Assembly: GCF_030384885.1 (NCBI RefSeq)
Contig: NZ_CP128613.1
Reading direction: 5' to 3' (one strand)
Origin: Escherichia coli
Lineage (GTDB): Bacteria > Pseudomonadota > Gammaproteobacteria > Enterobacterales > Enterobacteriaceae
DNA length: 64,000 nt
Shown: piece after piece, positions 1 to 34,301 of the stretch
Numbering within the stretch: the stretch's first letter is position 1
Layout: the number at the start of each line of letters is the position of its first letter
Made by a program: the position numbers and the translations under genes
The notes under the pieces: generated by a model
What the model was told of the DNA's origin: nothing
The model's database searches: none
Seen by the model: the letters and a program-made list of their open reading frames with translations, nothing else

Positions 1-388
1 CAACCAGCGCCACCCAACGAACTTTATTGAATGGTAATTTGTGCCCATCTCCATAAGCCAGCCCATTATTCCATACTCTGTCAATATATCCTTTTAGCAT
101 TGCTGGGAAGCTGTACCACCAGAGAGGAAAAACCACCACTAACGTGTCATGTTCAAGCAGCTCTGAATAAAGCTGATGAACCTCTGGAGAATAACGTTTA
201 TCCATATTCTTCCAGTCTGGTTCATCTTCCGGCGTCATCACCGGGTTGAAATTACGCCGATATAAATCGAGTTCCGTCACCTGTATTTTCCGCTCCATTG
301 CCCGCTGATGGATCGCATCAGCAATATGTGCGGTCAATGAATCATGACGAGGATGGGCCCATACCAAATAAATACGTTCAGACTGCAT
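1..388 (-). CDS. ycaK: Flavodoxin-like NAD(P)H-dependent oxidoreductase, 3' end truncated by window edge
   Basis: ATG at 388..386 preceded by GGAGG (revcomp of about 391..400); frame open to position 1; N-terminus MQSERIYLVWAHPRHDSL; divergent from ycaN as in K-12. Not in ORF track because it lacks an in-window stop. Confidence 0.8.
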   Translation of the reverse strand, partial: MQSERIYLVWAHPRHDSLTAHIADAIHQRAMERKIQVTELDLYRRNFNPVMTPEDEPDWKNMDKRYSPEVHQLYSELLEHDTLVVVFPLWWYSFPAMLKGYIDRVWNNGLAYGDGHKLPFNKVRWVALV

Positions 389-487
389 AATTTTACCTCC
401 ACGTTAAGTTCTGGAGCGCACTTTACGCAGGCGGCATCATCCTGTAAACGTGATGATTCAGGATGAGTTAATGAAGGATTTTCACTA

Positions 488-1396
488 ATGCGGATGAATA
501 TGTCTGACTTTGCCACTTTCTTTGCCGTGGCCCGTAATCAAAGCTTTCGCGCAGCAGGCGATGAGTTAGGCTTATCTTCGTCCGCCATTAGCCATAGTAT
601 TAAAACACTGGAACAACGTCTTAAAATTCGCTTATTCAATCGGACAACCCGAAGCGTATCGTTAACGGAAGCGGGTTCTAATCTCTATGAACGATTGCGC
701 CCAGCTTTCGACGAAATTCAGATCATGTTAGATGAGATGAATGATTTTCGTCTGACACCGACAGGTACGCTCAAAATCAATGCCGCCCGGGTAGCTGCAC
801 GTATATTTTTAATGCCTTTACTGGTTGGTTTCACACGTGAATATCCTGATATTAAAGTCGAGCTCACAACTGACGACTCTCTTGTTGATATCGTCCAGCA
901 GGGCTTTGACGCTGGCGTTCGACTTAGTGGCATCGTCGAAAAAGATATGATCAGCGTGGCGATCGGCCCGCCAGTGAAATTATGTGTAGCAGCAACGCCA
1001 GAGTACTTTGCAAGATATGGCAAACCCCGCCATCCTCATGATCTGCTTAATCATCAATGTGTTGTTTTTCGTTATCCCAGCGGCAAACCTTTCCACTGGC
1101 AATTTGCAAAGGAGCTGGAAATTGCTGTCGCAGGAAATATCATTCTGGATGATGTTGATGCTGAACTGGATGCCGTTTTGATGGGTGCTGGTATCGGGTA
1201 TCTGCTCTATGAACAGATCAAGGAGTACCTTGATACCGGTCGTTTAGAATGTGTACTGGAAGACTGGATCACAGAGCGTCCAGGCTTCCAGATCTATTAC
1301 CCAAACCGCCAGTATATGTCCTGCGGCTTGCGCGCATTTCTCGATTATGTAAAAACGGGTCAGATCTGCCAGAGTCAGCGTCACCGACCACAATAA
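488..1396 (+). CDS. ycaN: LysR-family transcriptional regulator
   Basis: ORF track 302 aa; N-terminal HTH region typical of LysR regulators; matches my recollection of K-12 YcaN length. Confidence 0.9.
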   Translation: MRMNMSDFATFFAVARNQSFRAAGDELGLSSSAISHSIKTLEQRLKIRLFNRTTRSVSLTEAGSNLYERLRPAFDEIQIMLDEMNDFRLTPTGTLKINAARVAARIFLMPLLVGFTREYPDIKVELTTDDSLVDIVQQGFDAGVRLSGIVEKDMISVAIGPPVKLCVAATPEYFARYGKPRHPHDLLNHQCVVFRYPSGKPFHWQFAKELEIAVAGNIILDDVDAELDAVLMGAGIGYLLYEQIKEYLDTGRLECVLEDWITERPGFQIYYPNRQYMSCGLRAFLDYVKTGQICQSQRHRPQ

Positions 1397-2827
1397 TTAT
1401 TTGCTATTCGCTTTACGCGCCAGCAGCGGGAATATCAGCCCTAATCCCACCAGCACAAACGGCGTTGCAACATTCAGCGCCAACTGGAATGTCCACTCTG
1501 CGGTGAAGGCTTCCATTTTCGGGAAAATACCCGTCAGGCAGGCAAAAGCGGTAAAGGCAAAACACCAAATTCCGACGGTCATTGCCAGCGGCTTATTACG
1601 AATAAAAACATATTCCGGCTTATATTTCTGCGCCAGGCGAACAACTGCAATAAATGCAACAAATACCCATAAATAACGCAGCGGCATCACTACCGAGTTA
1701 AGGTTCAACAGCCATTTATAGAGATTGTTCATATCACCGATGCCGAGAGTCGGCAGCATAATCAGGATCGCCACCAGCACCAGGGTCAGAAAATAGCCAT
1801 TAACGGGCGTACCAGATGCGTTGGTACGACATAAACTGGCAGGAATATATTTGCTGTCAGCATCGCCTAATAATACTTTAAGCGGCGCATCAATCGAGAA
1901 TACCAGCGCAGCTACTTGACCCAGAGTATTCGCAATGGCGTAAATCACCATTAAAGTATTACCCATGCTGTAATACTCGCCCAGCTTCTGGAAGGCGTAA
2001 TACTGGCCGTTGGTCATTAAGTCATCGGGAATATTGCGGGAGTCAAACATCATCCCCATTGCAAGCGATCCAAGGATCGCGCACACCGCAACCATCACCG
2101 CCAGGCATAACATCCCTTTTGGAAATTCTTTTCCTGGGTTGCGCGTTTGATTAACGTAGGGAGAAATCTTCTCTGCTCCACCAACCGCAAAGACCAGCAT
2201 TGAAATAGTGGTAATGTAGGTAAAGTCGATATGAGGAATAAACGTTTCCCAGGTAATGTTTGTGGTCGCAATATGCACTTCAGTAATCGCAGGCGCGGTT
2301 ACCGCCATCGCCACATACAGGAGCGACATAACAAACATCGCAATCCCTGCCACAGAACCGACGATTTTCAGCGATTTCATACCGCGTGAAGCAACCCACA
2401 TAAAGAAGACAAACAGCACCAGCGTTAACCCCTGTAACGCTACGACTGAATATTCTTTGATTAGCGAACCGTCGCCTTTCATCGCCCAACCGAGCGCAAT
2501 CAGTATTGCCTGGGGTTTTTGTGCCAGATAGGGAATATGCACTACCCAGTAGGTCCACGCGGCGAGGTAAGCCAGTCCGGGTCCCATCGTGTGTTTAATC
2601 CAGGTACTGACCCCGCCCTTCCCATCTTTGAAGGTCGAGCCTAACTGACCAACAATTAGCGCATAAGGTGTGAAATAGAGCGCAAAGATAAACACCCATG
2701 AAAAAACAACCACCAGCCCCTGGTTGGCGTAGTTATTAACAACGTTGCCAAAACCCCAGACAGTGATAAAAGACATCAGCGCAATGTTGTACCATCGCAG
2801 CTGTTTTTCCTGAACATTCCCAGCCAT
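1397..2827 (-). CDS. ycaM: APC-family amino acid transporter (inner membrane)
   Basis: ORF track 1397..3019 (540 aa); start trimmed to internal ATG 2827 (MAGNVQEKQ...) with AAGGA upstream, giving 476 aa; polytopic hydrophobic profile. Confidence 0.85.
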   Translation of the reverse strand: MAGNVQEKQLRWYNIALMSFITVWGFGNVVNNYANQGLVVVFSWVFIFALYFTPYALIVGQLGSTFKDGKGGVSTWIKHTMGPGLAYLAAWTYWVVHIPYLAQKPQAILIALGWAMKGDGSLIKEYSVVALQGLTLVLFVFFMWVASRGMKSLKIVGSVAGIAMFVMSLLYVAMAVTAPAITEVHIATTNITWETFIPHIDFTYITTISMLVFAVGGAEKISPYVNQTRNPGKEFPKGMLCLAVMVAVCAILGSLAMGMMFDSRNIPDDLMTNGQYYAFQKLGEYYSMGNTLMVIYAIANTLGQVAALVFSIDAPLKVLLGDADSKYIPASLCRTNASGTPVNGYFLTLVLVAILIMLPTLGIGDMNNLYKWLLNLNSVVMPLRYLWVFVAFIAVVRLAQKYKPEYVFIRNKPLAMTVGIWCFAFTAFACLTGIFPKMEAFTAEWTFQLALNVATPFVLVGLGLIFPLLARKANSK

Positions 2828-3036
2828 AGACAAATCCTTCGCCAAAATTAAAGGGGCATCTGTAAAACGAGGGATTATGCGCGGCAAATAAGAAGTGCGG
2901 AAATAGCGAAATGCAAAATTATAACCTGCTGCACATTTTATTTTGAAACGAATAAAATTTTGAAAAAAGCAAGTCAGAGAGAAGAAACAAAAAAGCAGAG
3001 TGTGAAACAGTAAGTTCACACTCTGCGTTAATTCAT

Positions 3037-4185
3037 TTACACGTGAGCAACGGGTTTCGGCGTATGACCGGCGTTGCGAAGCAGCATCAGCAAATAGATA
3101 AACGATACGCTGGCGATCATGATAAACAATAAATTATCGGAGAAATTCTGCATTAGCATGGCAGTAAATGACGGGCCAAGCAGACTTCCCACAGTATAGC
3201 TCAACAGTAAGGCCTGGTTCATCGCCACCAGTTGATGATGTTCAACTTTCTCGCAAGCCCATGCCATCGCCACCGGATATAGCGTAAAGCCAGCGGCACC
3301 GAGGATGAATAACGCTGGGGCCATCGCCGCCTGGCTAAGCATCGCGATACTGCCGAGAATGACGACAAAGACCTGAACACGCAACACCAGCAGTCGACCA
3401 AACTTATCGGCCAGACGTCCAATCGGCCATTGTCCAAGGATACCCGCACTGACCAGTACCGCCATCCAGAAACCAATGCTGGCATTGCTCACCCCTTTGT
3501 GATTGAGGTACAGCGGCATCAGGCCATATAGAGATCCCCGAACGATTCCTGAGATAATGCAGCCATTCACGCCAAGCCGCGCCTGACGGAGTTTTAGCAT
3601 TGACGTAATTGACGTCGAATCATGGTTTTCAGCCTGCTGATTCAGCACACGCGTAAACAACAGCGGTAAGATCCCTGCCAACGTCAAACCTGTAACCCAC
3701 GGCAATACGGACATCAGCTCGGTTGAAACTTTGCTGACCAGTAACTGGCCTAAAAACGTTCCCACGTAATAAACCATCATATACGCAGCAAGCAAACGAC
3801 CACGGTTACGTGACGTCCCACTGCACATCAGCGCGCTCTCAACGACCACCCAAATCATGGCACAGCCGACACCCGCTACAAAACGCCACGCCAACCAGCT
3901 CCAGAAACCAATCATCAGGCCAAGACCTGCACAGCCAGCGGCAAAAATGAAGGAGGCCAGATAATAGCTGCGGTTAAAGCCAATGCGCTTAATGACATAC
4001 CCTGTCAGCAATGTACCGACCAGGTTGCCGGTAAAATAGGATGAGCTGACAACGCCTACCTGCCATGTGGACATATGTTCCTGGGCGAGCCAAAGCGGCA
4101 CGAGTGTATTTAACACTGCGATCGCCAAAGTCAACAAAAGCAGGCCAGACAGCAAAAGCATGACAGGCCGGGTATACGTGGACAT
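3037..4185 (-). CDS. ycaD: MFS transporter
   Basis: ORF track 382 aa; multiple hydrophobic helices; length matches K-12 YcaD. Confidence 0.9.
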
Positions 4186-4499
4186 GAATTAAAACCGTGA
4201 GGAAGTTCAAATTTCATGCGCATCATGCCACCGCCAAAAACATTGTCAATGGGTGAAAATACGCGCATATCGCAGCTGAGGTATTATCGATTTATATTAC
4301 TCATTCATAACGCTAATGCTGGAGAGACGATTAATCTCATCTGATTGTTTTTATTGATCTAACACAAATTTCATACGCTTCGTTCAGTCGAAAAATTTCA
4401 TGGTCACAGCAAACTCATATTTCCCGTCTATGCTTTCAGAGCAATGCATCGCGTCTGACCGATTTCAGACGTACCGCTGACTCTCGAAAGGAGAAGAGG

Positions 4500-5126
4500 A
4501 TGACCAAACCGTATGTTCGTCTCGATAAAAATGATGCTGCCGTTTTGCTTGTTGATCACCAGGCTGGTTTACTTTCCCTTGTACGGGATATTGAACCCGA
4601 TAAGTTTAAAAATAACGTGCTGGCGCTGGGTGATCTGGCTAAGTATTTCAACTTACCTACTATTCTTACCACCAGTTTTGAAACCGGCCCTAACGGCCCA
4701 TTAGTTCCGGAACTGAAAGCACAGTTCCCTGATGCACCTTACATTGCTCGCCCGGGAAATATTAACGCCTGGGATAACGAAGATTTTGTGAAAGCGGTAA
4801 AAGCGACAGGTAAAAAACAATTGATTATCGCTGGTGTGGTAACCGAAGTTTGCGTTGCGTTCCCGGCACTTTCGGCAATTGAAGAAGGGTTTGATGTCTT
4901 TGTCGTGACTGACGCGTCAGGAACCTTTAACGAAATTACCCGGCACTCGGCGTGGGATCGAATGTCGCAAGCGGGTGCGCAATTGATGACATGGTTCGGC
5001 GTGGCGTGCGAGCTGCATCGCGACTGGCGTAATGATATTGAAGGACTGGCGACGTTGTTCTCTAACCATATTCCTGATTATCGTAATTTGATGACCAGTT
5101 ATGACACGTTAACGAAGCAGAAATAA
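4500..5126 (+). CDS. ycaC: Isochorismatase-family hydrolase
   Basis: ORF track 208 aa; matches K-12 YcaC. Confidence 0.9.
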   Translation: MTKPYVRLDKNDAAVLLVDHQAGLLSLVRDIEPDKFKNNVLALGDLAKYFNLPTILTTSFETGPNGPLVPELKAQFPDAPYIARPGNINAWDNEDFVKAVKATGKKQLIIAGVVTEVCVAFPALSAIEEGFDVFVVTDASGTFNEITRHSAWDRMSQAGAQLMTWFGVACELHRDWRNDIEGLATLFSNHIPDYRNLMTSYDTLTKQK

Positions 5127-5131
5127 AAGAG

Positions 5132-5153
5132 AACCGGGGCCGAAACCCCGGTT
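5132..5153. terminator. Bidirectional rho-independent terminator between convergent ycaC and dmsC
   Basis: Perfect hairpin AACCGGGG-ccgaaa-CCCCGGTT flanked by A/T runs, located between the two stop codons. Confidence 0.7.
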
Positions 5154-5160
5154 GTTATGA

Positions 5161-6024
5161 TTAGCTTGCGACGGCCATTCCCACGGTCATATGCAAACCA
5201 TAGAATACGCCACGACCGATTAATTCCCCTGCCAGAAGCAGAATGAATGATACGGAAAGTAGCGGAACCGCAGGCTGATAACCTTTTAGCTGTGGGGCAA
5301 TCCACAAGCACAGGGCAACAGCCAAAAGCACGATCCGCCAGGACATCAGCGCACCATAGTCCGGCACCAGCGCTGCGGCCTGCTGCACAGAGCTATGAAT
5401 AGTCGCCAGCTCTGCGCCCTGCATCACTGACACCACGCCACTCACTACCAGGGCCAGTACAGAAATAGCTGGCAGCAGACGCATCGCCCAGCCATCGACG
5501 CCAGCCAGACTCAGTAACAGGTAACCCAGTAACGGGCCGCCCATGAACATCGTCAGGAAGAAGCCCATCGGTGTCCAGATGCTGTACCAGGTGGGTACGG
5601 TATCGATGCTGTTATAGACACGCACCATCATCCAGACAAAGACTACGCCAAGAACCATCGTCACCACCAGCCACAGCGTACGCAATGCCGGTGACAGCTT
5701 TTTCAGCATTGCCAGTAACCAGCCGATGCCACCAACAGCAAAAAAGATCGAACCGCTGGCGATTTCGTTACTGAGTGCTGAAGCCCCTACCCGGTTGAGC
5801 GAGTTAAAGGCGCGCATCGGTGAACCAAGATGAAGCATAGAGGCGATAAAGCCAATCCCCATCAGCACCCATAAGCCAAACATGCAGGCGATAACACGCT
5901 GCTGGGCTTCTGCTCGCAGGTCGCCTTTGAGCAGCGCCAAAGCCAGAACGATAAAACCACCTGCTACACATTGCCCGAAGACCGTGAAGATCATCAGCGG
6001 CCATTCATGCCATCCACTTCCCAT
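5161..6024 (-). CDS. dmsC: DMSO reductase membrane anchor subunit
   Basis: ORF track 5161..6087; start set to ATG 6024 (MGSGWHEWPLMIF...) with GGAGG upstream and 4-bp overlap with dmsB stop; 287 aa. Confidence 0.9.
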   Translation of the reverse strand: MGSGWHEWPLMIFTVFGQCVAGGFIVLALALLKGDLRAEAQQRVIACMFGLWVLMGIGFIASMLHLGSPMRAFNSLNRVGASALSNEIASGSIFFAVGGIGWLLAMLKKLSPALRTLWLVVTMVLGVVFVWMMVRVYNSIDTVPTWYSIWTPMGFFLTMFMGGPLLGYLLLSLAGVDGWAMRLLPAISVLALVVSGVVSVMQGAELATIHSSVQQAAALVPDYGALMSWRIVLLAVALCLWIAPQLKGYQPAVPLLSVSFILLLAGELIGRGVFYGLHMTVGMAVAS

Positions 6025-6025
6025 C

Positions 6026-6643
6026 TCACACCTCCTTCGGGTTTGCCAGATAGCCAGTGGTATCCCCGGTCGGGCGGCTGTTGGCATTGGGTTTGATCAC
6101 AATATTCGGTTTGGTAAAGTGAGCTCGCGGCAACGGCGCAACAGCCGCCAAATCGCCATGTTTTTTACGCAGCTCGTCGATAGGGCCGAAATCCAGCGCC
6201 CGCAGCGGGCAAGATTCAACACAGATCGGCTTCTTCCCCTCCGCAACACGGTCATAACAACCATCGCATTTGGTCATATGGCCTTTCGTTTCGTTATATT
6301 GCGGTGCGCCATACGGGCAAGCCATATGGCAGTAGCGGCAGCCAATGCACACATCTTCATCGACCACAACAAAACCATCTTCACGTTTATGCATCGCACC
6401 GCTCGGGCAGACTTTAGTACAAGCCGGATCTTCGCAGTGGTTACATGAAATCGACAGATAGTAGGCAAACACGTTCTGATGCCAGACACCGTTATCTTCC
6501 TGCCAGTCACCGCCAGCATATTCATAAATGCGGCGGAAGCTGACTTCCGGCGTCAGATCTTTATAGTCTTTACAGGCCAGCTCGCAGGTTTTGCAACCGG
6601 TGCAACGGCTGGAATCAATAAAAAATCCATACTGGGTTGTCAT
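6026..6643 (-). CDS. dmsB: DMSO reductase iron-sulfur subunit (four Cys-cluster ferredoxin motifs)
   Basis: ORF track 205 aa; CxxCxxCxxxCP motifs visible in translation. Confidence 0.95.
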   Translation of the reverse strand: MTTQYGFFIDSSRCTGCKTCELACKDYKDLTPEVSFRRIYEYAGGDWQEDNGVWHQNVFAYYLSISCNHCEDPACTKVCPSGAMHKREDGFVVVDEDVCIGCRYCHMACPYGAPQYNETKGHMTKCDGCYDRVAEGKKPICVESCPLRALDFGPIDELRKKHGDLAAVAPLPRAHFTKPNIVIKPNANSRPTGDTTGYLANPKEV

Positions 6644-6653
6644 CGGTTACTCC

Positions 6654-9098
6654 TTACACCTTTTCAACCTGAACCAGGTTTGTATGTGACGGATTCCCCT
6701 TAGCGAGAGGAGACGGACGTTGAGTGGTCAGTACGTTAATACAACCGCCCTTATCGACACGTTTTGCATCCGGGTCATACCAGGCACCTTCACCCAGTGC
6801 GACCACACCCGGCATCATTCGTGGCGTCACTTTTGCCTCAATGTGAACCTCACCACGGTCGTTAAAGATCCTGACCTTATCGCCGTTGTTGATACCGCGT
6901 TTTTGTGCATCAAGCGGGTTGATCCACATTTCCTGACGGCAAGCTGCTTTCAGCACATCAACGTTGCCGTAAGTTGAGTGAACGCGAGATTTGTAGTGGA
7001 AGCCAGTAAGCTGCAGCGGATATTGTTTGTTCAGCGGATCCTGATAACTTTCAAAGCCCGGCGTGTAGATCGGCAGTGGATCGATCACGTCGCCTTCTGG
7101 CAATTCCCAGGTCGCGGCAATGTCAGCCAGCGCCTGCGAATAAATCTCAATTTTACCCGATGGCGTGGTCAGCGGATTTGCCTGCGGATCTTCACGGAAA
7201 GCTTTATAAGCAACGTGATGCCCTTGTGGGTCGCGCTTTTTAAAGATCCCCTGCTTGCGGAACTCTTCAAACGTTGGCAGTTCAGGAATCGCTTCCCGCG
7301 ACTGGGCATACAGATGCCGCATCCACTCTTCCTGTGTACGGCCTTCAGTAAACTGTTGCTCAACGCCAAGACGTTTTGCCAGTTCGCTGGTCATTTCATA
7401 GATGGTCTTACATTCAAAGCGCGGTTTAATCACCTGATCGTTGAAAATCACGTAAGACATATTCCCGCAGGATGCATCCAGTGCAAAGTCCATCTGTTCG
7501 GAAGCAGTGCAGTCAGGCAGCAGGATGTCAGCATATTTCGCCGATGAAGTCATGTGGCAGTCGATAACCACAATCAGCTCGCACTTCTTATCATCCTGAA
7601 GGATTTCATGGGTACGGTTGATTTCAGAATGCTGGTTAATCAGGCAGTTACCGGCATAGTTCCAGATCATTTTGATCGGCACATCCAGCTTATCTTTCCC
7701 GCGCACACCATCACGCAGCGCTGTCATTTCCGGGCCACGTTCAATGGCATCGGTCCACATAAACATCGAAATGCTGGTCTGGATCGGGTTTTCGAGGGTC
7801 GGCATACGGACAAAAGGTAAGCTGTATGAACCTTCACGCGCGCCGCTGTTGCCCCCGTTAATACCAACGTTACCGGTCAGAATCGCCAGCATCGAGATAG
7901 CACGGGTTGCGATTTCACCGTTAGCGTGACGCTGCGGGCCCCATCCCTGGCTGATAAACGCCGGTTTGGTACTACCGATTTCACGAGCCAATTTGATGAT
8001 TTTGTCTGCCGGAACACCGGTGATTTGCGAGGCCCATTCCGGCGTTTTAGCCACGCCATCTGGCCCTTCACCCAGAATATAAGCTTTATAGTGGCCATTT
8101 TTCGGTGCACTGGCTGGTAGGGTTTTCTCGTCGTAGCCAACGCAATATTTATCGAGGAATGCCTGATCCACCAGGTTTTCGGTGATCATGACATACGCCA
8201 GACCGTTAACCAGTGCGGCATCTGTTCCCGGACGAATAGGGATCCACTCATCTTCGCGCCCGGCACCGGTGTCAGTATAGCGCGGATCGATGATGATCAT
8301 GCGAGCATTAGATTTCTGGCGCGCCTGTTCAAGATAGTAAGTCACCCCACCGCCACTCATTCGCGTTTCGCCAGGGTTATTACCAAACAGCACTACCAGT
8401 TTACTGTTTTCGATATCCGACGGGCTGTTACCATCTGCCCAGCCGCCGTAGGTATAGTTCAAACCTTCCGCAATTTGCGCGGAAGAGTAGTCACCGTAAT
8501 GGTTCAGGTAACCGCCGCAGCAGTTCATCAGGCGAGCGACCAGGGTATTTCCCGGCGGCCAGGAGCGGGTCATGGTGCCGCCCAGCGTACCGGTACCATA
8601 GTTCAGATAGATAGACTCGTTGCCGTACTCTTTGATCAGGCGCTGCATATTGGTCGCGATGATGTCGTAGGCTTCTTCCCAGCTAATGCGCTCGAATTTG
8701 CCTTCACCGCGCGCCCCGACTCGTTTCATCGGATATTTCAGGCGGTCCGGATTGTAGACACGGCGACGCATGGAACGCCCACGCAGACAGGCGCGCACCT
8801 GGTGCAGGCCGTCATAGTTGTCATCGCCGGTATTATCCGTTTCAACATATTTAATTTCACCGTCCACAACGTGCATACGTAGCGGGCAGCGGCTACCACA
8901 GTTAACTGTACAGGCGCTCCAGATTACCTTTTCGTCTGACTTTGCCGGAAGGGCACTATCAACAGCGTGCGCAATCCGACTAAAAGGTAATGTTAATGCG
9001 CTGCTGGCCATTGCCAGGCCGCCGATCGCTGTCGTTTTTACCAAACCACGGCGACTCACCTCAGCAGCCAATACCGCATCAGGGATTTTCGTTTTCAT
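6654..9098 (-). CDS. dmsA: DMSO reductase catalytic molybdopterin subunit with twin-arginine signal
   Basis: ORF track 814 aa; N-terminal SRRGLVK Tat motif; molybdopterin oxidoreductase architecture. Confidence 0.95.
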   Translation of the reverse strand: MKTKIPDAVLAAEVSRRGLVKTTAIGGLAMASSALTLPFSRIAHAVDSALPAKSDEKVIWSACTVNCGSRCPLRMHVVDGEIKYVETDNTGDDNYDGLHQVRACLRGRSMRRRVYNPDRLKYPMKRVGARGEGKFERISWEEAYDIIATNMQRLIKEYGNESIYLNYGTGTLGGTMTRSWPPGNTLVARLMNCCGGYLNHYGDYSSAQIAEGLNYTYGGWADGNSPSDIENSKLVVLFGNNPGETRMSGGGVTYYLEQARQKSNARMIIIDPRYTDTGAGREDEWIPIRPGTDAALVNGLAYVMITENLVDQAFLDKYCVGYDEKTLPASAPKNGHYKAYILGEGPDGVAKTPEWASQITGVPADKIIKLAREIGSTKPAFISQGWGPQRHANGEIATRAISMLAILTGNVGINGGNSGAREGSYSLPFVRMPTLENPIQTSISMFMWTDAIERGPEMTALRDGVRGKDKLDVPIKMIWNYAGNCLINQHSEINRTHEILQDDKKCELIVVIDCHMTSSAKYADILLPDCTASEQMDFALDASCGNMSYVIFNDQVIKPRFECKTIYEMTSELAKRLGVEQQFTEGRTQEEWMRHLYAQSREAIPELPTFEEFRKQGIFKKRDPQGHHVAYKAFREDPQANPLTTPSGKIEIYSQALADIAATWELPEGDVIDPLPIYTPGFESYQDPLNKQYPLQLTGFHYKSRVHSTYGNVDVLKAACRQEMWINPLDAQKRGINNGDKVRIFNDRGEVHIEAKVTPRMMPGVVALGEGAWYDPDAKRVDKGGCINVLTTQRPSPLAKGNPSHTNLVQVEKV

Positions 9099-9268
9099 AA
9101 TGGCTCACTCAAGCTTGCTCACGATTGATTCCAGTAACAAACCGTATTGTGTAATTATTTCTATAGCAGTTCGCTATATAGGCTTGTATATATCGAATGA
9201 TTTGAAAATCAAAGAGATAGGTAGATTTTCACTCGAAAGTAGTATTACGTGTTAGTGAGGAGTAATTA

Positions 9269-9282
9269 TTGTTCGGTATCAA
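9269..9282 (-). promoter_or_regulatory. FNR box upstream of dmsA
   Basis: Minus-strand reading TTGATaccgAACAA matches the TTGAT-N4-ATCAA FNR consensus; position verified against the overlapping ORF-track frame. Confidence 0.7.
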
Positions 9283-9290
9283 AGGGAGAC

Positions 9291-9316
9291 AAAAAAAGCG
9301 CCCGCAGGCGCTTTTT
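9291..9316 (-). terminator. serS rho-independent terminator (bidirectional hairpin)
   Basis: A-run, GCGCC-cgca-GGCGC stem-loop, T-run immediately downstream of the serS stop. Confidence 0.7.
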
Positions 9317-9336
9317 AGATTCAGAAAAATTGGGTA

Positions 9337-10650
<1,314 letters not shown>

Positions 10651-31228: not shown

Positions 31229-32221
31229 ATGGTGAAATCGACGTTATGTATAACCATTGATTTCATGAATATGTCGCAGCTAACTGAACGGACCTTTACG
31301 CCATCTGACTCTCTCAGCAGCCTGTCACTTTTTCTTAGTCTGGCACGTGGACAGTGTCGGCCGGGTAAATTTTGGCATCGCCGTAGTTTTCGCCAGAAAT
31401 TTTTGCTGCGCTCGTTGATTATGCCGCGTTTAAGCGTTGAGTGGATGAACGAACTTTCCCACTGGCCGAATCTCCATGTGTTGTTAACGCGCCAGCCGCG
31501 ACTGCCTGTGCGTCTGCATCGCCCTTACCTTGCGGCGAATCTTAGCCGCAAGCAATTGCTGGAGGCGTTACGTTACCATTATGCATTGCTTCGTGCCTGC
31601 ATGTCGGCAGAAGAATTCAGCTTATATTTGAATACTCCCGGGCTGCAACTGGCGAAGCTGGAAGGCAAAAACGGCGAGCAGTTCACACTTGAGCTGACCA
31701 TGATGATCTCAATGGATAAAGAAGGTGACAGCACAATCCTGTTCCGCAACAGCGAAGGTATTCCTCTGGCAGAGATCACCTTTACTCTGTGTGAATACCA
31801 GGGGAAAAGAACAATGTTTATTGGCGGGCTGCAAGGTGCGAAATGGGAAATTCCACATCAGGAAATCCAGAATGCGACGAAAGCCTGCCACGGGCTATTT
31901 CCCAAACGCCTTGTGATGGAAGCGGCCTGTCTGTTTGCCCAACGTTTGCAGGTAGAGCAGATCATTGCCGTCAGCAATGAAACACATATTTACCGCAGCC
32001 TGCGTTATCGCGATAAAGAAGGCAAAATCCATGCTGATTACAACGCGTTCTGGGAGTCGGTTGGCGGCGTATGTGATGCTGAACGCCATTACCGCCTTCC
32101 GGCACAGATAGCACGAAAAGAGATTGCCGAAATCGCCAGTAAAAAACGGGCTGAATATCGTCGGCGCTATGAGATGCTCGACGCTATTCAGCCACAAATG
32201 GCCACGATGTTTCGCGGTTAA
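31229..32221 (+). CDS. ybjX: VirK/DUF535-family protein
   Basis: ORF track 330 aa; start uncertain (alternative ATG at 31271, MNMSQLTERTF). Confidence 0.85.
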   Translation: MVKSTLCITIDFMNMSQLTERTFTPSDSLSSLSLFLSLARGQCRPGKFWHRRSFRQKFLLRSLIMPRLSVEWMNELSHWPNLHVLLTRQPRLPVRLHRPYLAANLSRKQLLEALRYHYALLRACMSAEEFSLYLNTPGLQLAKLEGKNGEQFTLELTMMISMDKEGDSTILFRNSEGIPLAEITFTLCEYQGKRTMFIGGLQGAKWEIPHQEIQNATKACHGLFPKRLVMEAACLFAQRLQVEQIIAVSNETHIYRSLRYRDKEGKIHADYNAFWESVGGVCDAERHYRLPAQIARKEIAEIASKKRAEYRRRYEMLDAIQPQMATMFRG

Positions 32222-33876
32222 TCCGCGCGACCGCGCGCCAGCCACAGCACGCGTGAGAACATTTTTTTCAGCAGCGTCGGTACGGAATCCACACCACGAC
32301 GGCCGGCCTCCATTGCCACTTCAATGGCAAGATCGGGTTTGGAAGAGCGATGGATCGCTTTCGAGATAATTTTGCGCAAATTCATCGGCACATTTTCCGG
32401 GATCTGCGCCACGCGGTGGAACACATCAGAAAATCCCTGGCGATACATAAAATGTTCCATATCCAGCGCCGGTAACGCCGTTAAATGTTCTCGTTCGGCT
32501 TCCCGATCGTTATTCAACAGGCTGCGTACCGTAGCGGCATACTTCTTCCCGGCTTCATCGCCATCGACCAGCACATGCCATTCAATCCCCATTCGACGGG
32601 CGAATTTAACCAGTGGCTTTAGCCCGGACTGGGCAAACTCAATGACCTTGATCCCTTCGGCATCAAAATGATGTCCACACTGACGCGCCAGTTCATTGAT
32701 AACCCAGGTTTCCGTTTCGCCTTCCACCAGCAGCCAGCAGCGAGCAAACAGCGATGACGGACGGTTAAAACGAATGTGGAAAGAGATACGTCGGCTGTCT
32801 TCGGTACTCAAGCCACTCGGACCCAGACGCCAGGCTGCAACGCGAGAGGACTCACGTACCAGACGGCAAACATGCTCTACCGGCGTTAACGAAAGCAACT
32901 CACCCGAGTTGGTGGTGGCAATGCGCTGCAATGGCAGAAGATTCAACAGATGCCAGGCAACTGAAAGCATAATGGGGTGTAAACGGGTTTCTGGATCTTC
33001 GATCAGCAACAATGGACGGGCGTCTTTATCCAGTCGCAATGTGCCTTTTGCCTGCAATAAAGTAGCAAACAGGCCGAGCAAAATAACCCGATACGAGCGC
33101 CCTCCAGGCCGGTCAATCATCCGGTTGATGATATCCAGATAGCGCCAGCTTCGTTGCTCATTACTGGCTCGCCGCCGCATTAAACGATATCGCGCCTGTC
33201 CGGCCCCCTGCTCAGAGAAATAATGCTCAAGCAGCTGCACCATTGCGGAAAGTCCCTGACGAATCTGTCCATCAGAGAGATTTTGCGGATGTGAGGATAA
33301 TTCACGGGCGAGGAAATCGAGCTGGCGCGCGGTGACTTCCACATTAGGGACATTTGGCACCGTGCCGTTACGAATACGGCGCATAAAACGGGCATCACGC
33401 AAGCGCAACACCGGCATTAAACGCACCAGATGGCGTGCCTGATCGTTAATATCCTCGACATCAATCGGATGTCCGTCTTTATCGAGAAAACTGCGGAGTG
33501 TCATCACACTGCCATCTTCCGCACTCTCCCCTTCCAGGCGATAAAAAATTCGATGATAACCATCGGTGCATGGCGTCCAGCATGCTTCCAACGGTCGATA
33601 GCGGCGTACCCGATGACGGCCTGGCAGCGATTCGCGGAAGGTCAAAATAATATGCAGATGATGTTCCCGCCCGTTGATATCTCCCGGCGGAAACCAGAAA
33701 TCGTCGCGCTCAAAATGGTAGAGATCTGATTCTGGCGATAGCAGCAGGGTTAAGGCGTCCAGCAAGCTGGATTTACCCCACGCGTTCTCCCCAATCAGGA
33801 CGTTGTTTTGTTCCAGCATCAACGATAAACGGTTGATACCGCGAAAACCCACAATTTCAACGCGCTCAAGAATCAT
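32218..33876 (-). CDS. ybjD: OLD-family ATP-dependent endonuclease (AAA ATPase plus TOPRIM)
   Basis: ORF track 552 aa; N-terminal P-loop-like GENAWGKSSLLDAL; matches K-12 YbjD. Confidence 0.9.
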   Translation of the reverse strand: MILERVEIVGFRGINRLSLMLEQNNVLIGENAWGKSSLLDALTLLLSPESDLYHFERDDFWFPPGDINGREHHLHIILTFRESLPGRHRVRRYRPLEACWTPCTDGYHRIFYRLEGESAEDGSVMTLRSFLDKDGHPIDVEDINDQARHLVRLMPVLRLRDARFMRRIRNGTVPNVPNVEVTARQLDFLARELSSHPQNLSDGQIRQGLSAMVQLLEHYFSEQGAGQARYRLMRRRASNEQRSWRYLDIINRMIDRPGGRSYRVILLGLFATLLQAKGTLRLDKDARPLLLIEDPETRLHPIMLSVAWHLLNLLPLQRIATTNSGELLSLTPVEHVCRLVRESSRVAAWRLGPSGLSTEDSRRISFHIRFNRPSSLFARCWLLVEGETETWVINELARQCGHHFDAEGIKVIEFAQSGLKPLVKFARRMGIEWHVLVDGDEAGKKYAATVRSLLNNDREAEREHLTALPALDMEHFMYRQGFSDVFHRVAQIPENVPMNLRKIISKAIHRSSKPDLAIEVAMEAGRRGVDSVPTLLKKMFSRVLWLARGRAD

Positions 33877-34301
33877 ATCCCCTCCAGAAATATGTGACTT
33901 ATCCTTTACGCTGGCAGTATAACGGGAAAGGCCTTGCTAATACGTGATGACATCACATTTAAGCATGGCAAATGTCTGAAAAATGAGCGAATAATCGCGT
34001 TATACTCCCTCTTGCTGATAAGTCTGCAAAAACAACAAAATCAAATAATTAGCATGATAAATTATTTTTTATTACGCCTAAAGGATTAAATCTTTTGCTT
34101 GCACTACACTGTCAATCAGACAAATGACTATATGGGGCAACCCGCTGTTGCCCTAAATCAAATTTACTGGATTTATTTATCTGGTGAATGACTCGCCTTC
34201 GTTTTTAAAATAGCCGCGCATTATTTCCGTCGTCACTTTTTTACGACGACCCTATAAAACGACCATATTTTTCACAGGGTCAATTTTTAATTGAGGTGGA
34301 T

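Follow-up and report, generated by a model that had tools for sequence, protein, structure and literature searches.

Proteins of the OLD (overcoming lysogenisation defect) family, in which an ATPase is joined to a TOPRIM nuclease, were originally divided into two classes, and the Escherichia coli protein YbjD was the query by which these classes were defined (Schiltz et al. 2019, PMC6755086). In that work, the E. coli gene was listed as Class 1, a single isolated gene. The classes are based on genomic context, and it has been remarked that Class 2 is nested within Class 1. GajA of the Gabija system, Vc OLD, Thermus OLD, and the archaeal Cran1 act on DNA, whereas P2 Old is reported to cut tRNA anticodon arms and AriB of PARIS to cleave tRNA. 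The TOPRIM active site of OLD proteins mirrors that of RNase M5 (PMC6755086), and GajA is inhibited by ATP (PMC13261556). The present analysis concerns ybjD as it occurs in a stretch of 64,000 nucleotides of E. coli DNA (contig NZ_CP128613.1, assembly GCF_030384885.1), which is called the window below. Here ybjD is a core gene under strong purifying selection, strongest on its nuclease site, and its nearest defence relatives are in a GajA subfamily of Gabija. A cellular role for the enzyme is discussed against a role in immunity.

A 2026 micropublication is devoted to ybjD as a stand-alone Class 1 OLD gene, for which the name oldB/OldB is proposed (Atahualpa et al., PMC13261556), and no later work on the gene was found in the literature. 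The ybjD transcript is detected in K-12, and deletion leaves the plating of 68 BASEL phages unchanged. When ybjD is induced with arabinose, plaquing of Bas18 and Bas20 decreases and plaques of Bas64-68 become smaller, and these effects are seen at a non-toxic inducer level. Effects are seen only upon overexpression from a plasmid. The overexpression effect survives both deletion of the whole TOPRIM domain and the K35A substitution but is lost without the ATPase region. K35A is more toxic than the wild type, and the toxicity of YbjD is RecBC-independent, unlike that of P2 Old (PMC13261556). This sole experimental study reads ybjD as a defence gene from an overexpression phenotype that does not need the nuclease, and its authors regard the physiological role as still to be defined, in agreement with what the sequence-only reading of the window had stated. 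The OLD-family reading of ybjD is already in the literature; what is added here is the core-gene status, the constraint on the TOPRIM site, the kinship to Gabija, and a substitution in the H-loop.

The sequence-only reading had placed a protein of 552 amino acids at positions 32218-33876 without stating its strand. The list of open reading frames and the translation give a frame that spans exactly these positions on the minus strand, with an ATG start. Its DNA matches ybjD of E. coli 2013C-4282, a gene annotated as "ATP-dependent endonuclease", at 100% identity, and its ends coincide with the primers used for ybjD cloning in PMC13261556. The ends of the frame, the length, and the neighbours aqpZ and ybjX agree with E. 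coli K-12 YbjD (b0876). The frame is a real conserved gene, E. coli ybjD, and not a chance one. It is present as a single copy in 5424 of 5426 complete E. coli genomes (99.96%). Among the 5,424 E. coli genomes, identity over ybjD is at least 99% in one only (2013C-4282) and 95-99% in 5,412, so that the allele of the window stands at 95-99% nucleotide identity to almost all other E. coli, with differences that are allelic only. The window derives from 2013C-4282 itself or from a rare lineage near it.

Beyond E. coli, one genome per species was considered: 166 relatives were found and 80 were retained, all of them Enterobacteriaceae at 80-99% identity. All 80 keep the gene in the same slot, between aqpZ/lysO/hcp-hcr on one side and (ybjX)/macAB-clpSA on the other. 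The same slot is kept in Yersinia and Proteus, which extends it to three families of Enterobacterales, and two Vibrio species share a different one, in which the gene follows terC-ushA. The identity to YbjD drops with phylogenetic distance, from 90% in Salmonella and Citrobacter and 86% in Klebsiella to 64% in Yersinia and Serratia, 56% in Proteus, 45% in Aeromonas, and 43% in Vibrio. No break in the reading frame is seen in Enterobacterales, Aeromonas, or Vibrio, and in a neighbour-joining tree the gammaproteobacterial YbjD proteins form a clade with 89% bootstrap support. Within Enterobacterales, ybjD belongs to the core genome and is inherited vertically, and relatives of it occur in Aeromonas and Vibrio. 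The chromosomal and conserved character attributed to the gene from its sequence, as well as its position next to ybjX and macAB, is borne out. It is the only OLD-family gene carried by nearly every E. coli, Salmonella, and Klebsiella, and it belongs to the functionally uncharacterised genes of E. coli.

The search for mobile carriers gave a different picture from that typical of defence genes. No full-length homologue was present in 50,697 phage records, in which the sole real match was P2 old, with 28% identity over 34% of the protein. Full-length "plasmid" matches were chromosome-sized or chromosomal-fragment records in which ybjX was still adjacent. Several PLSDB records of 4-5 Mb with chromosomal core loci (NZ_OL790696.1, NZ_CP141089.1, NZ_OL790812.1, and NZ_AP026896.1) are chromosomes labelled as plasmids, and the apparent plasmid carriage of ybjD is inflated because of them. 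In 2.9 million viral contigs two matches were obtained. One (L101, IMGVR_UViG_2534681697_000018) is E. coli chromosome with aqpZ-ybjD-ybjX-macA, and the other (L102, IMGVR_UViG_3300021604_000070) is a Gabija locus. An association with mobile elements was rejected, given that the searches returned only P2 Old (28%), fragments of host DNA, mislabelled chromosomes, and one distant Gabija locus. The accessory, patchy, mobile, or defence-island distribution that is typical of defence genes, although not obligatory for them, is not that of ybjD. Two database records deserve mention in this regard. OR845570.1 (2,060 bp, "Escherichia phage ECO95 1-6-1") holds host ybjD DNA filed as viral. A contig assigned to "Chryseobacterium sp. 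18061" (L040, CACSKA010000002.1) carries an Enterobacteriaceae-type hcp-lysO-aqpZ-ybjD-ybjX-macAB locus at 86% identity, and this assembly is probably contaminated or mislabelled.

The ATPase-plus-TOPRIM architecture of OLD proteins that the sequence-only reading had recognised was found by Pfam search, with the TOPRIM domain intact. AAA_15 and AAA_21 match the N-terminus at the P-loop, DUF2813 covers residues 1-375 (E 2e-160, 534.6 bits against a cut-off of 21, model positions 1-372 of 372), and OLD-like_TOPRIM (PF20469) covers residues 376-440 (E 3.8e-16). The ATPase of the OLD family is recognised in the signatures G29-x4-G-K35-S and hhhh-E293-D-P-E296...H300, and the TOPRIM domain in the catalytic glutamate E385 and the DxD motif D438-x-D440. 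An AlphaFold2 model built from a 71-sequence alignment reached a pLDDT of 85.7 and a pTM of 0.85, with low confidence confined to two loops of a helical insertion (residues ~143-277). The helices of this insertion lie at residues 180-195, 202-220, 240-255, and 260-277, and the insertion probably mediates dimerisation, a role inferred from Thermus OLD. The best structural matches of the model are GajA chains, at the top, and Thermus OLD, the OLD protein of retron-Eco8, and the C-terminal region of Burkholderia OLD, and the modelled ATPase head also resembles the heads of SMC, Rad50, and RecF. The identity, the architecture, and the core-gene status of ybjD can be regarded as practically certain.

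Alignment with P2 Old pairs K35 with K37 (Walker A), E293 with D299 (Walker B), and H300 with H306 (D-loop) and, in the TOPRIM domain, E385/E389 with E398/E402 and D438/D440 with D453/D455. A catalytic function of these residues has been demonstrated in the OLD proteins of Thermus and P2; in Thermus, E276 and H283 are the equivalents of E293 and H300. E385 and E389 align also with E379 and E383 of Bacillus cereus GajA. D472-x-E474 shares a D/S-x-E pattern with D541-x-E543 of P2 Old and S478-x-E480 of Thermus OLD. From this pattern and from conservation, rather than from geometry, D472 and E474 are putative second ligands of metal B. K513 would correspond to the catalytic lysine of Burkholderia (K562) and P2 (K550) OLD, and the linker residues 358-381 may contact nucleic acid or couple the two domains.

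An exhaustive search of 1.84 billion representatives returned 1979 clusters with E <1e-3, of which 335 were below 1e-30. The full-length relatives, from Vibrio, Tatumella, Motilimonas, a Binatia metagenome-assembled genome, and metagenomes, have 30-54% identity, and all carry DUF2813 and OLD-TOPRIM. Residue conservation was computed over 69 sequences averaging ~35% identity. The invariant residues are E30, R362, H367, R379, W381, E385, G386, E387, E389, F414, G418, D440, G443, E474, G481, K513, and P514, and the nuclease residues D438 (99%) and D472 (97%) are nearly so. In the Walker A motif, G29, E30, N31, and G34 are conserved in at least 94% of sequences and K35 in only 90%, being R or S in a few relatives, while the Walker B and D-loop residues E293, E296, and H300 reach 91%, 94%, and 99%. 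The mean frequency of the top residue is highest in the TOPRIM core (0.73) and lowest in the helical insert (0.31). In some relatives (P0158, P0133, P0220, and P0263), the Walker A lysine is replaced by S or R and every nuclease residue is kept; to judge from these sequences, ATP binding may be dispensable in parts of the DUF2813 OLD family.

The same distribution of constraint is seen over a shorter evolutionary time. In a comparison with six close Escherichia relatives, with an unsaturated synonymous divergence (dS) of about 0.4, the ratio of nonsynonymous to synonymous divergence (dN/dS) of ybjD is 0.015. The values for the comparison genes are 0.013 (clpA), 0.017 (hcp), 0.018 (poxB), 0.024 (macA), 0.032 (macB), 0.038 (aqpZ), and 0.066 (ybjX). 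In this comparison the TOPRIM core has 3 nonsynonymous and 94 synonymous differences (dN/dS 0.007), and its ratio is 0.007-0.013 across comparisons. In a 14-species comparison, where dS is saturated, the ranking of the genes is unchanged. Purifying selection on ybjD is as strong as on clpA, and it is strongest on the nuclease site.

Among defence models, the best PADLOC match of YbjD is the GajA model PDLC00094 (E 7e-80, 267 bits), compared with 84 bits for the P2-type Old model, and several other GajA profiles match as well, so that the ATPase-TOPRIM arrangement is GajA-like. Sequence matches in the PDB point in the same direction (GajA 7e-5, Thermus OLD 1.7e-3). On these profile and sequence scores, the nearest defence relatives of YbjD are in the Gabija GajA subfamily (PDLC00094 type, Class 2 OLD) and not in P2 Old. 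YbjD is not closer to the Class 1 archetypes P2 Old and Thermus OLD than to other classes, a comparison that is no formal criterion of a context-based classification. As to context, ybjD has the setting of Class 1, without an adjacent helicase, reverse transcriptase or noncoding RNA (ncRNA), or split AriB partner. A Class 3 retron or Class 4 PARIS setting was not found, as no annotated reverse transcriptase or ncRNA neighbour is present and the domains are fused in one frame; the NCBIfam retron-effector and PADLOC AriA models match the P-loop region only, far below their cut-offs.

The L102 contig carries what is, from its sequence, a real Gabija system. Its GajA (570 amino acids) has a full-length DUF2813 match and scores 757 bits against PDLC00094, and a UvrD-type GajB (882 bits) follows with a 4-bp overlap. 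The two genes lie in a compact defence island (L102, 1-10203), with an HmaC-like HEPN_Swt1+DUF499 ATPase at 135-3497, GajA at 3503-5215, GajB at 5212-7131, and an N6/Eco57I-type methylase at 7890-10163 on the minus strand. Like YbjD, L102 GajA combines DUF2813 with OLD-TOPRIM, and the two share all nuclease residues, with 31% identity over the full length and ~39% over the C-terminal half. When L102 GajA was used as query, the best plasmid-labelled matches were chromosomal YbjD orthologues, ahead of plasmid-borne GajA-like ATPases; YbjD and L102 GajA are reciprocal best relatives among plasmid and defence sequences. Unlike L102 GajA, however, which has its overlapping GajB and its defence island, YbjD has no helicase beside it. 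In E. coli and in orthologous loci no UvrD/PcrA-type helicase adjoins ybjD in the tandem arrangement of Gabija, and tblastn with a real GajB as query detected no GajB-like sequence in the 64-kb window or in 105 of 107 fetched loci. P0264, a 57%-identical relative, also has a GajB (65% identical to that of L102), and relatives at 38-40% identity have none. The PADLOC label "GajA" was for its part set aside as evidence of Gabija, since PDLC00094 scores stand-alone relatives equally (262-378 bits).

The residues at two positions differ between the GajB-linked and the stand-alone proteins. At the H-loop position, the GajB-linked DUF2813 GajA proteins have histidine, as do B. cereus GajA, P2 Old, and Thermus OLD. 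Asparagine takes its place in YbjD, throughout the gammaproteobacterial YbjD clade (17 of 17), and in 15 of 16 proteins whose stand-alone setting is known. At position 362, stand-alone members always have arginine and GajB-linked proteins L or Q. The two GajB-linked proteins group with 98% support and form a basal branch of the family tree, a picture that agrees with the published nesting of Class 2 in Class 1. The separating node has 42% support and the outgroup branch is long, and because of this the tree cannot polarise loss against gain of GajB. The view of YbjD as an orphaned GajA was for this reason not adopted.

Thermus scotoductus OLD (PDB 6P74), the structural archetype of Class 1, keeps the H-loop histidine (H310) where YbjD has N323 and has a serine (S478) at the first metal-B position where YbjD has D472; the sequence relation is weak (E 1.7e-3). 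P2 Old resembles YbjD in being a single-gene system whose ATPase and metal-A motifs align one to one, but it is 28% identical over only a third of the protein and has the H-loop histidine. In addition, P2 Old is encoded by a phage, is lethal to recBC cells, and cleaves tRNA, whereas YbjD is a chromosomal core protein with RecBC-independent toxicity. Cran1, an archaeal OLD ATPase and nickase with a role in the cell cycle (PMC12796447), is like YbjD conserved, chromosomal, and apparently not a defence protein. Unlike the dispensable ybjD, it is essential and belongs to a separate archaeal class.

YbjD is likely to be an ATP-gated two-metal nuclease. In the proposed mechanism, an ABC-type ATPase head with a helical insertion, the probable dimerisation element, is fused to a nuclease module made of the TOPRIM domain and a helical domain. 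Metal A would be held by E385, D438, and D440 and metal B by E389, D472, and E474, with K513 as the catalytic lysine. ATP binding would act mainly as a regulatory switch that restrains the enzyme and not as its fuel, as described for GajA. This is suggested because the H-loop histidine has become asparagine, K35 is less conserved than the nuclease residues, and K35A is more toxic. The activity under selection would be the cleavage of nucleic acid by the TOPRIM site. Nicking of DNA is the most plausible chemistry by analogy with the closest relatives, the GajA proteins, and DNA is the more probable substrate because of this closeness and of the SMC/Rad50-like head.

The overexpression assay needs the ATPase region, whereas evolution preserves the nuclease, and this contrast points to a native function that depends on the TOPRIM domain. 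Since selection preserves the TOPRIM site, nucleic-acid cleavage would be needed for the native function, and the phenotype that is independent of both TOPRIM and Walker A is probably not the selected function; in that case, the weak anti-phage effect of overexpression would be a by-product of the ATPase region. The cleavage may serve a conserved cellular function, probably the processing of nucleic acids, for which Cran1 provides a precedent. Tentatively, YbjD can be viewed as a bacterial counterpart of Cran1. It would be a kin of the GajA lineage without GajB, in which the change from histidine to asparagine in the H-loop lets ATP binding gate the TOPRIM domain without hydrolysis driving it, and its nuclease would act on host DNA, for example by nicking or resolving chromosomal structures; this more specific proposal is possible, with doubt outweighing confidence. 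That the primary role is cellular and not defensive has a chance slightly below even. The statement as a whole, namely, a stand-alone ATP-gated OLD nuclease with a nuclease-dependent selected function that is cellular rather than dedicated to defence, is evenly poised between true and false. If the cellular role is true, OLD/Gabija-type enzymes have been recruited for housekeeping in bacteria as in archaea, and orphan OLD or GajA homologues should be counted with caution as immune genes in surveys.

Several observations weigh against this reading. No cellular pathway, substrate, or phenotype could be assigned to YbjD, the gene is non-essential, and no deletion phenotype is reported (PMC13261556). 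The only experimental phenotype is anti-phage (PMC13261556), all biochemically characterised bacterial relatives act in defence, and conservation in the core genome is compatible with an immune role. In the published assay TOPRIM deletion and active-site mutants were without effect (PMC13261556), so that the nuclease activity of YbjD is a predicted one. As regards the selection data, dS is saturated in the wider comparison, and the close-species set pools six non-independent pairs. From regulation, no clue was obtained: the ybjD-aqpZ intergenic region has no LexA-box-like site, and a footprint of 16 species revealed no conserved operator, only a -10 element and a ribosome-binding site. Across the window, LexA-box-like sites occur at chance level (20 against 17.5 expected). 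A link to DNA repair in the literature was also discarded, as the gene is mentioned there only through the use of the aqpZ-ybjD intergenic region as a neutral integration site.

Unlikely, yet the first alternative to be weighed, is that YbjD is a genuine single-gene anti-phage protein (Class 1 OLD, "OldB"), expressed at a low level and activated by particular unsampled phages or conditions. It draws on the Bas18/Bas20 and Bas64-68 effects at a non-toxic inducer level (PMC13261556), on the defence roles of the characterised bacterial members of the family (P2 Old, Vc OLD, GajA, retron Eco8, and PARIS), and on Gabija GajA proteins as the closest identifiable relatives whose system is known. Against these stand the null result of deletion with 68 phages (PMC13261556) and an overexpression effect that requires neither the TOPRIM domain nor the Walker A lysine, although both are conserved and the TOPRIM domain is the most constrained part. 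A gene that is nearly universal, keeps its synteny, is selected like clpA, and is missing from phages, plasmids, and defence islands is also unlike a typical defence gene. The suggestion of the sequence-only reading that ybjD is a plausible standalone defence gene holds for the standalone part, since no partner was found; the defence part is weakly supported in view of the null deletion and of the core-gene evolution. Neither the lack of a TOPRIM domain nor a clear assignment to a housekeeping pathway, the findings named there as decisive against it, was encountered. If defence is true, ybjD is a rare core-genome single-gene immune nuclease.

Quite improbable is a nuclease directed to RNA instead of DNA, active in tRNA or rRNA processing or in stress-induced tRNA cleavage in the manner of P2 Old and PARIS AriB. 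The reported tRNA cleavage by these two proteins, the RNase M5-like active site, and the toxicity of overexpressed YbjD (PMC13261556) would suit such an enzyme. On the other side, the GajA-type profile scores far above the P2-type one on YbjD (267 against 84 bits), and DNA is the target of GajA, Vc OLD, Thermus OLD, and Cran1. YbjD is moreover toxic independently of RecBC, in contrast to P2 Old (PMC13261556), and its ATPase head resembles the DNA-binding heads of SMC, Rad50, and RecF. The idea of a decaying, functionless Gabija remnant left after GajB loss, which the GajA model as best PADLOC match, a 31-39% identical relative that is a bona fide GajA with an overlapping GajB, and the lack of GajB near ybjD might evoke, is effectively refuted by the selection data (dN/dS 0.015, invariant catalytic residues, and a frame intact in Enterobacterales, Aeromonas, and Vibrio), by the transcript detected in K-12 (PMC13261556), and by a tree that does not put the YbjD clade inside the GajB-linked group.

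The favoured reading of YbjD as a stand-alone enzyme is in keeping with its surroundings. In the window, aqpZ lies upstream and is divergent, ybjX is convergent, and macA-macB, cspD, and clpS-clpA follow. No conserved partner gene was detected in E. coli, the 80 Enterobacteriaceae, Yersinia, Proteus, Aeromonas, Vibrio, or 13 distant metagenomic relatives, a result that bears on the partner check proposed in the sequence-only reading. Outside the Enterobacterales slot, the neighbours are unrelated metabolic genes that differ between lineages. aqpZ encodes a MIP protein, and ybjX (VirK/DUF535; 31229-32221, plus strand) has no PADLOC match. ybjX was rejected as a partner because it is far more variable (46-100% amino acid identity, dN/dS 0.066-0.118, faster than its neighbours) and missing in 17 of 80 Enterobacteriaceae loci, including those of Klebsiella, Raoultella, and Superficieibacter, in which ybjD and macAB are retained. 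In Kluyvera and a related genome (L067, L071, L072, L073, and L080), ~1.1 kb of DNA between ybjD and ybjX that other genera lack suggests an inserted gene.

The stop codons of ybjD and ybjX overlap in TTAA, with no terminator-like site between the genes, so that the two genes must be transcribed into overlapping RNAs, and a published list of convergent excludons includes the pair (PMC12288877). The overlap is not conserved, and in Yersinia the gap is 137 bp. Upstream of ybjD, a GGAGG ribosome-binding site lies 5-9 nt 5' of the ATG. A conserved TATACT, 40-45 nt before the ATG in the 16-species footprint, is likely to be the -10 element; the -35 region is poor in E. coli, and a consensus promoter scan called nothing upstream of the gene. 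The coordinates of these and the other features are collected in the table.

Table. Features of ybjD and its flanks in the window, with the evidence for each
Feature	Position	Strand	Evidence
ybjD coding sequence, 552 codons and TAA stop (32218-32220)	32218..33876	-	Frame list, translation, identity to 2013C-4282
ABC-type ATPase region, residues 1-375 (DUF2813; AAA_15/AAA_21 N-terminal)	32752..33876	-	Pfam and AlphaFold2 model matches
Walker A/P-loop, G29-E-N-A-W-G-K35-S36	33769..33792	-	Conservation; K35 aligns with P2 Old K37
Helical insertion in ATPase, residues ~143-277, presumed dimerisation domain	33046..33450	-	AlphaFold2 helices; role inferred from Thermus OLD
Walker B and D-loop, L289-L-L-I-E293-D294-P-E296-T-R-L-H300-P301	32974..33012	-	Conservation, P2 Old alignment
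N323, ABC H-loop position, Asn instead of the usual His	32908..32910	-	Aligns with P2 Old H332 and B. cereus GajA "THS"
Basic linker helices before TOPRIM, residues 358-381 (R362, R363, H367, R369, R372, R379, W381)	32734..32805	-	Conservation
TOPRIM core, residues 376-445	32542..32751	-	Pfam OLD-like_TOPRIM
E385-G-E-T-E389, catalytic Glu (metal A) and second Glu (metal B)	32710..32724	-	Invariance, alignments
D438-G-D440, TOPRIM DxD motif (metal A)	32557..32565	-	Conservation; aligns with P2 Old D453/D455
C-terminal helical domain, predicted to complete the nuclease site, residues 446-552	32221..32541	-	
D472-M-E474, putative second half of metal-B site	32455..32463	-	Pattern and conservation
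K513, invariant Lys, putative counterpart of OLD catalytic Lys	32338..32340	-	Conservation; aligns with P2 Old Lys
GGAGG ribosome-binding site	33881..33885	-	Sequence; kept in 16 Enterobacteriaceae
TATACT, likely -10 promoter element	33916..33921	-	Phylogenetic footprint, 16 species
TTAA, overlapping ybjD/ybjX stop codons (convergent genes)	32218..32221	.	Sequence

Some distant members of the DUF2813 family are of a different form or in a different context. Those of 1,000-1,900 amino acids (P0149, P0163, P0165, P0175, and ~10 more) have an insertion of ~500 residues after Walker A, rich in Ser, Ala, and Gly and of low complexity, together with a long C-terminal extension that has no Pfam match; one of them lies near a DNA polymerase I gene (L098/L099). 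They were considered as SMC-like coiled-coil forms, which was rejected as the inserts are not heptad-like. A stand-alone DUF2813 OLD protein, P0184 (gene at 832-2532, L088-L090, in Binatia-like metagenome contigs), is encoded directly downstream of a PhdYeFM-PIN toxin-antitoxin pair. A gap of 47 bp separates its gene from a family-B DNA polymerase gene that follows in the same orientation, an adjacency that could reflect an association with replication or repair.

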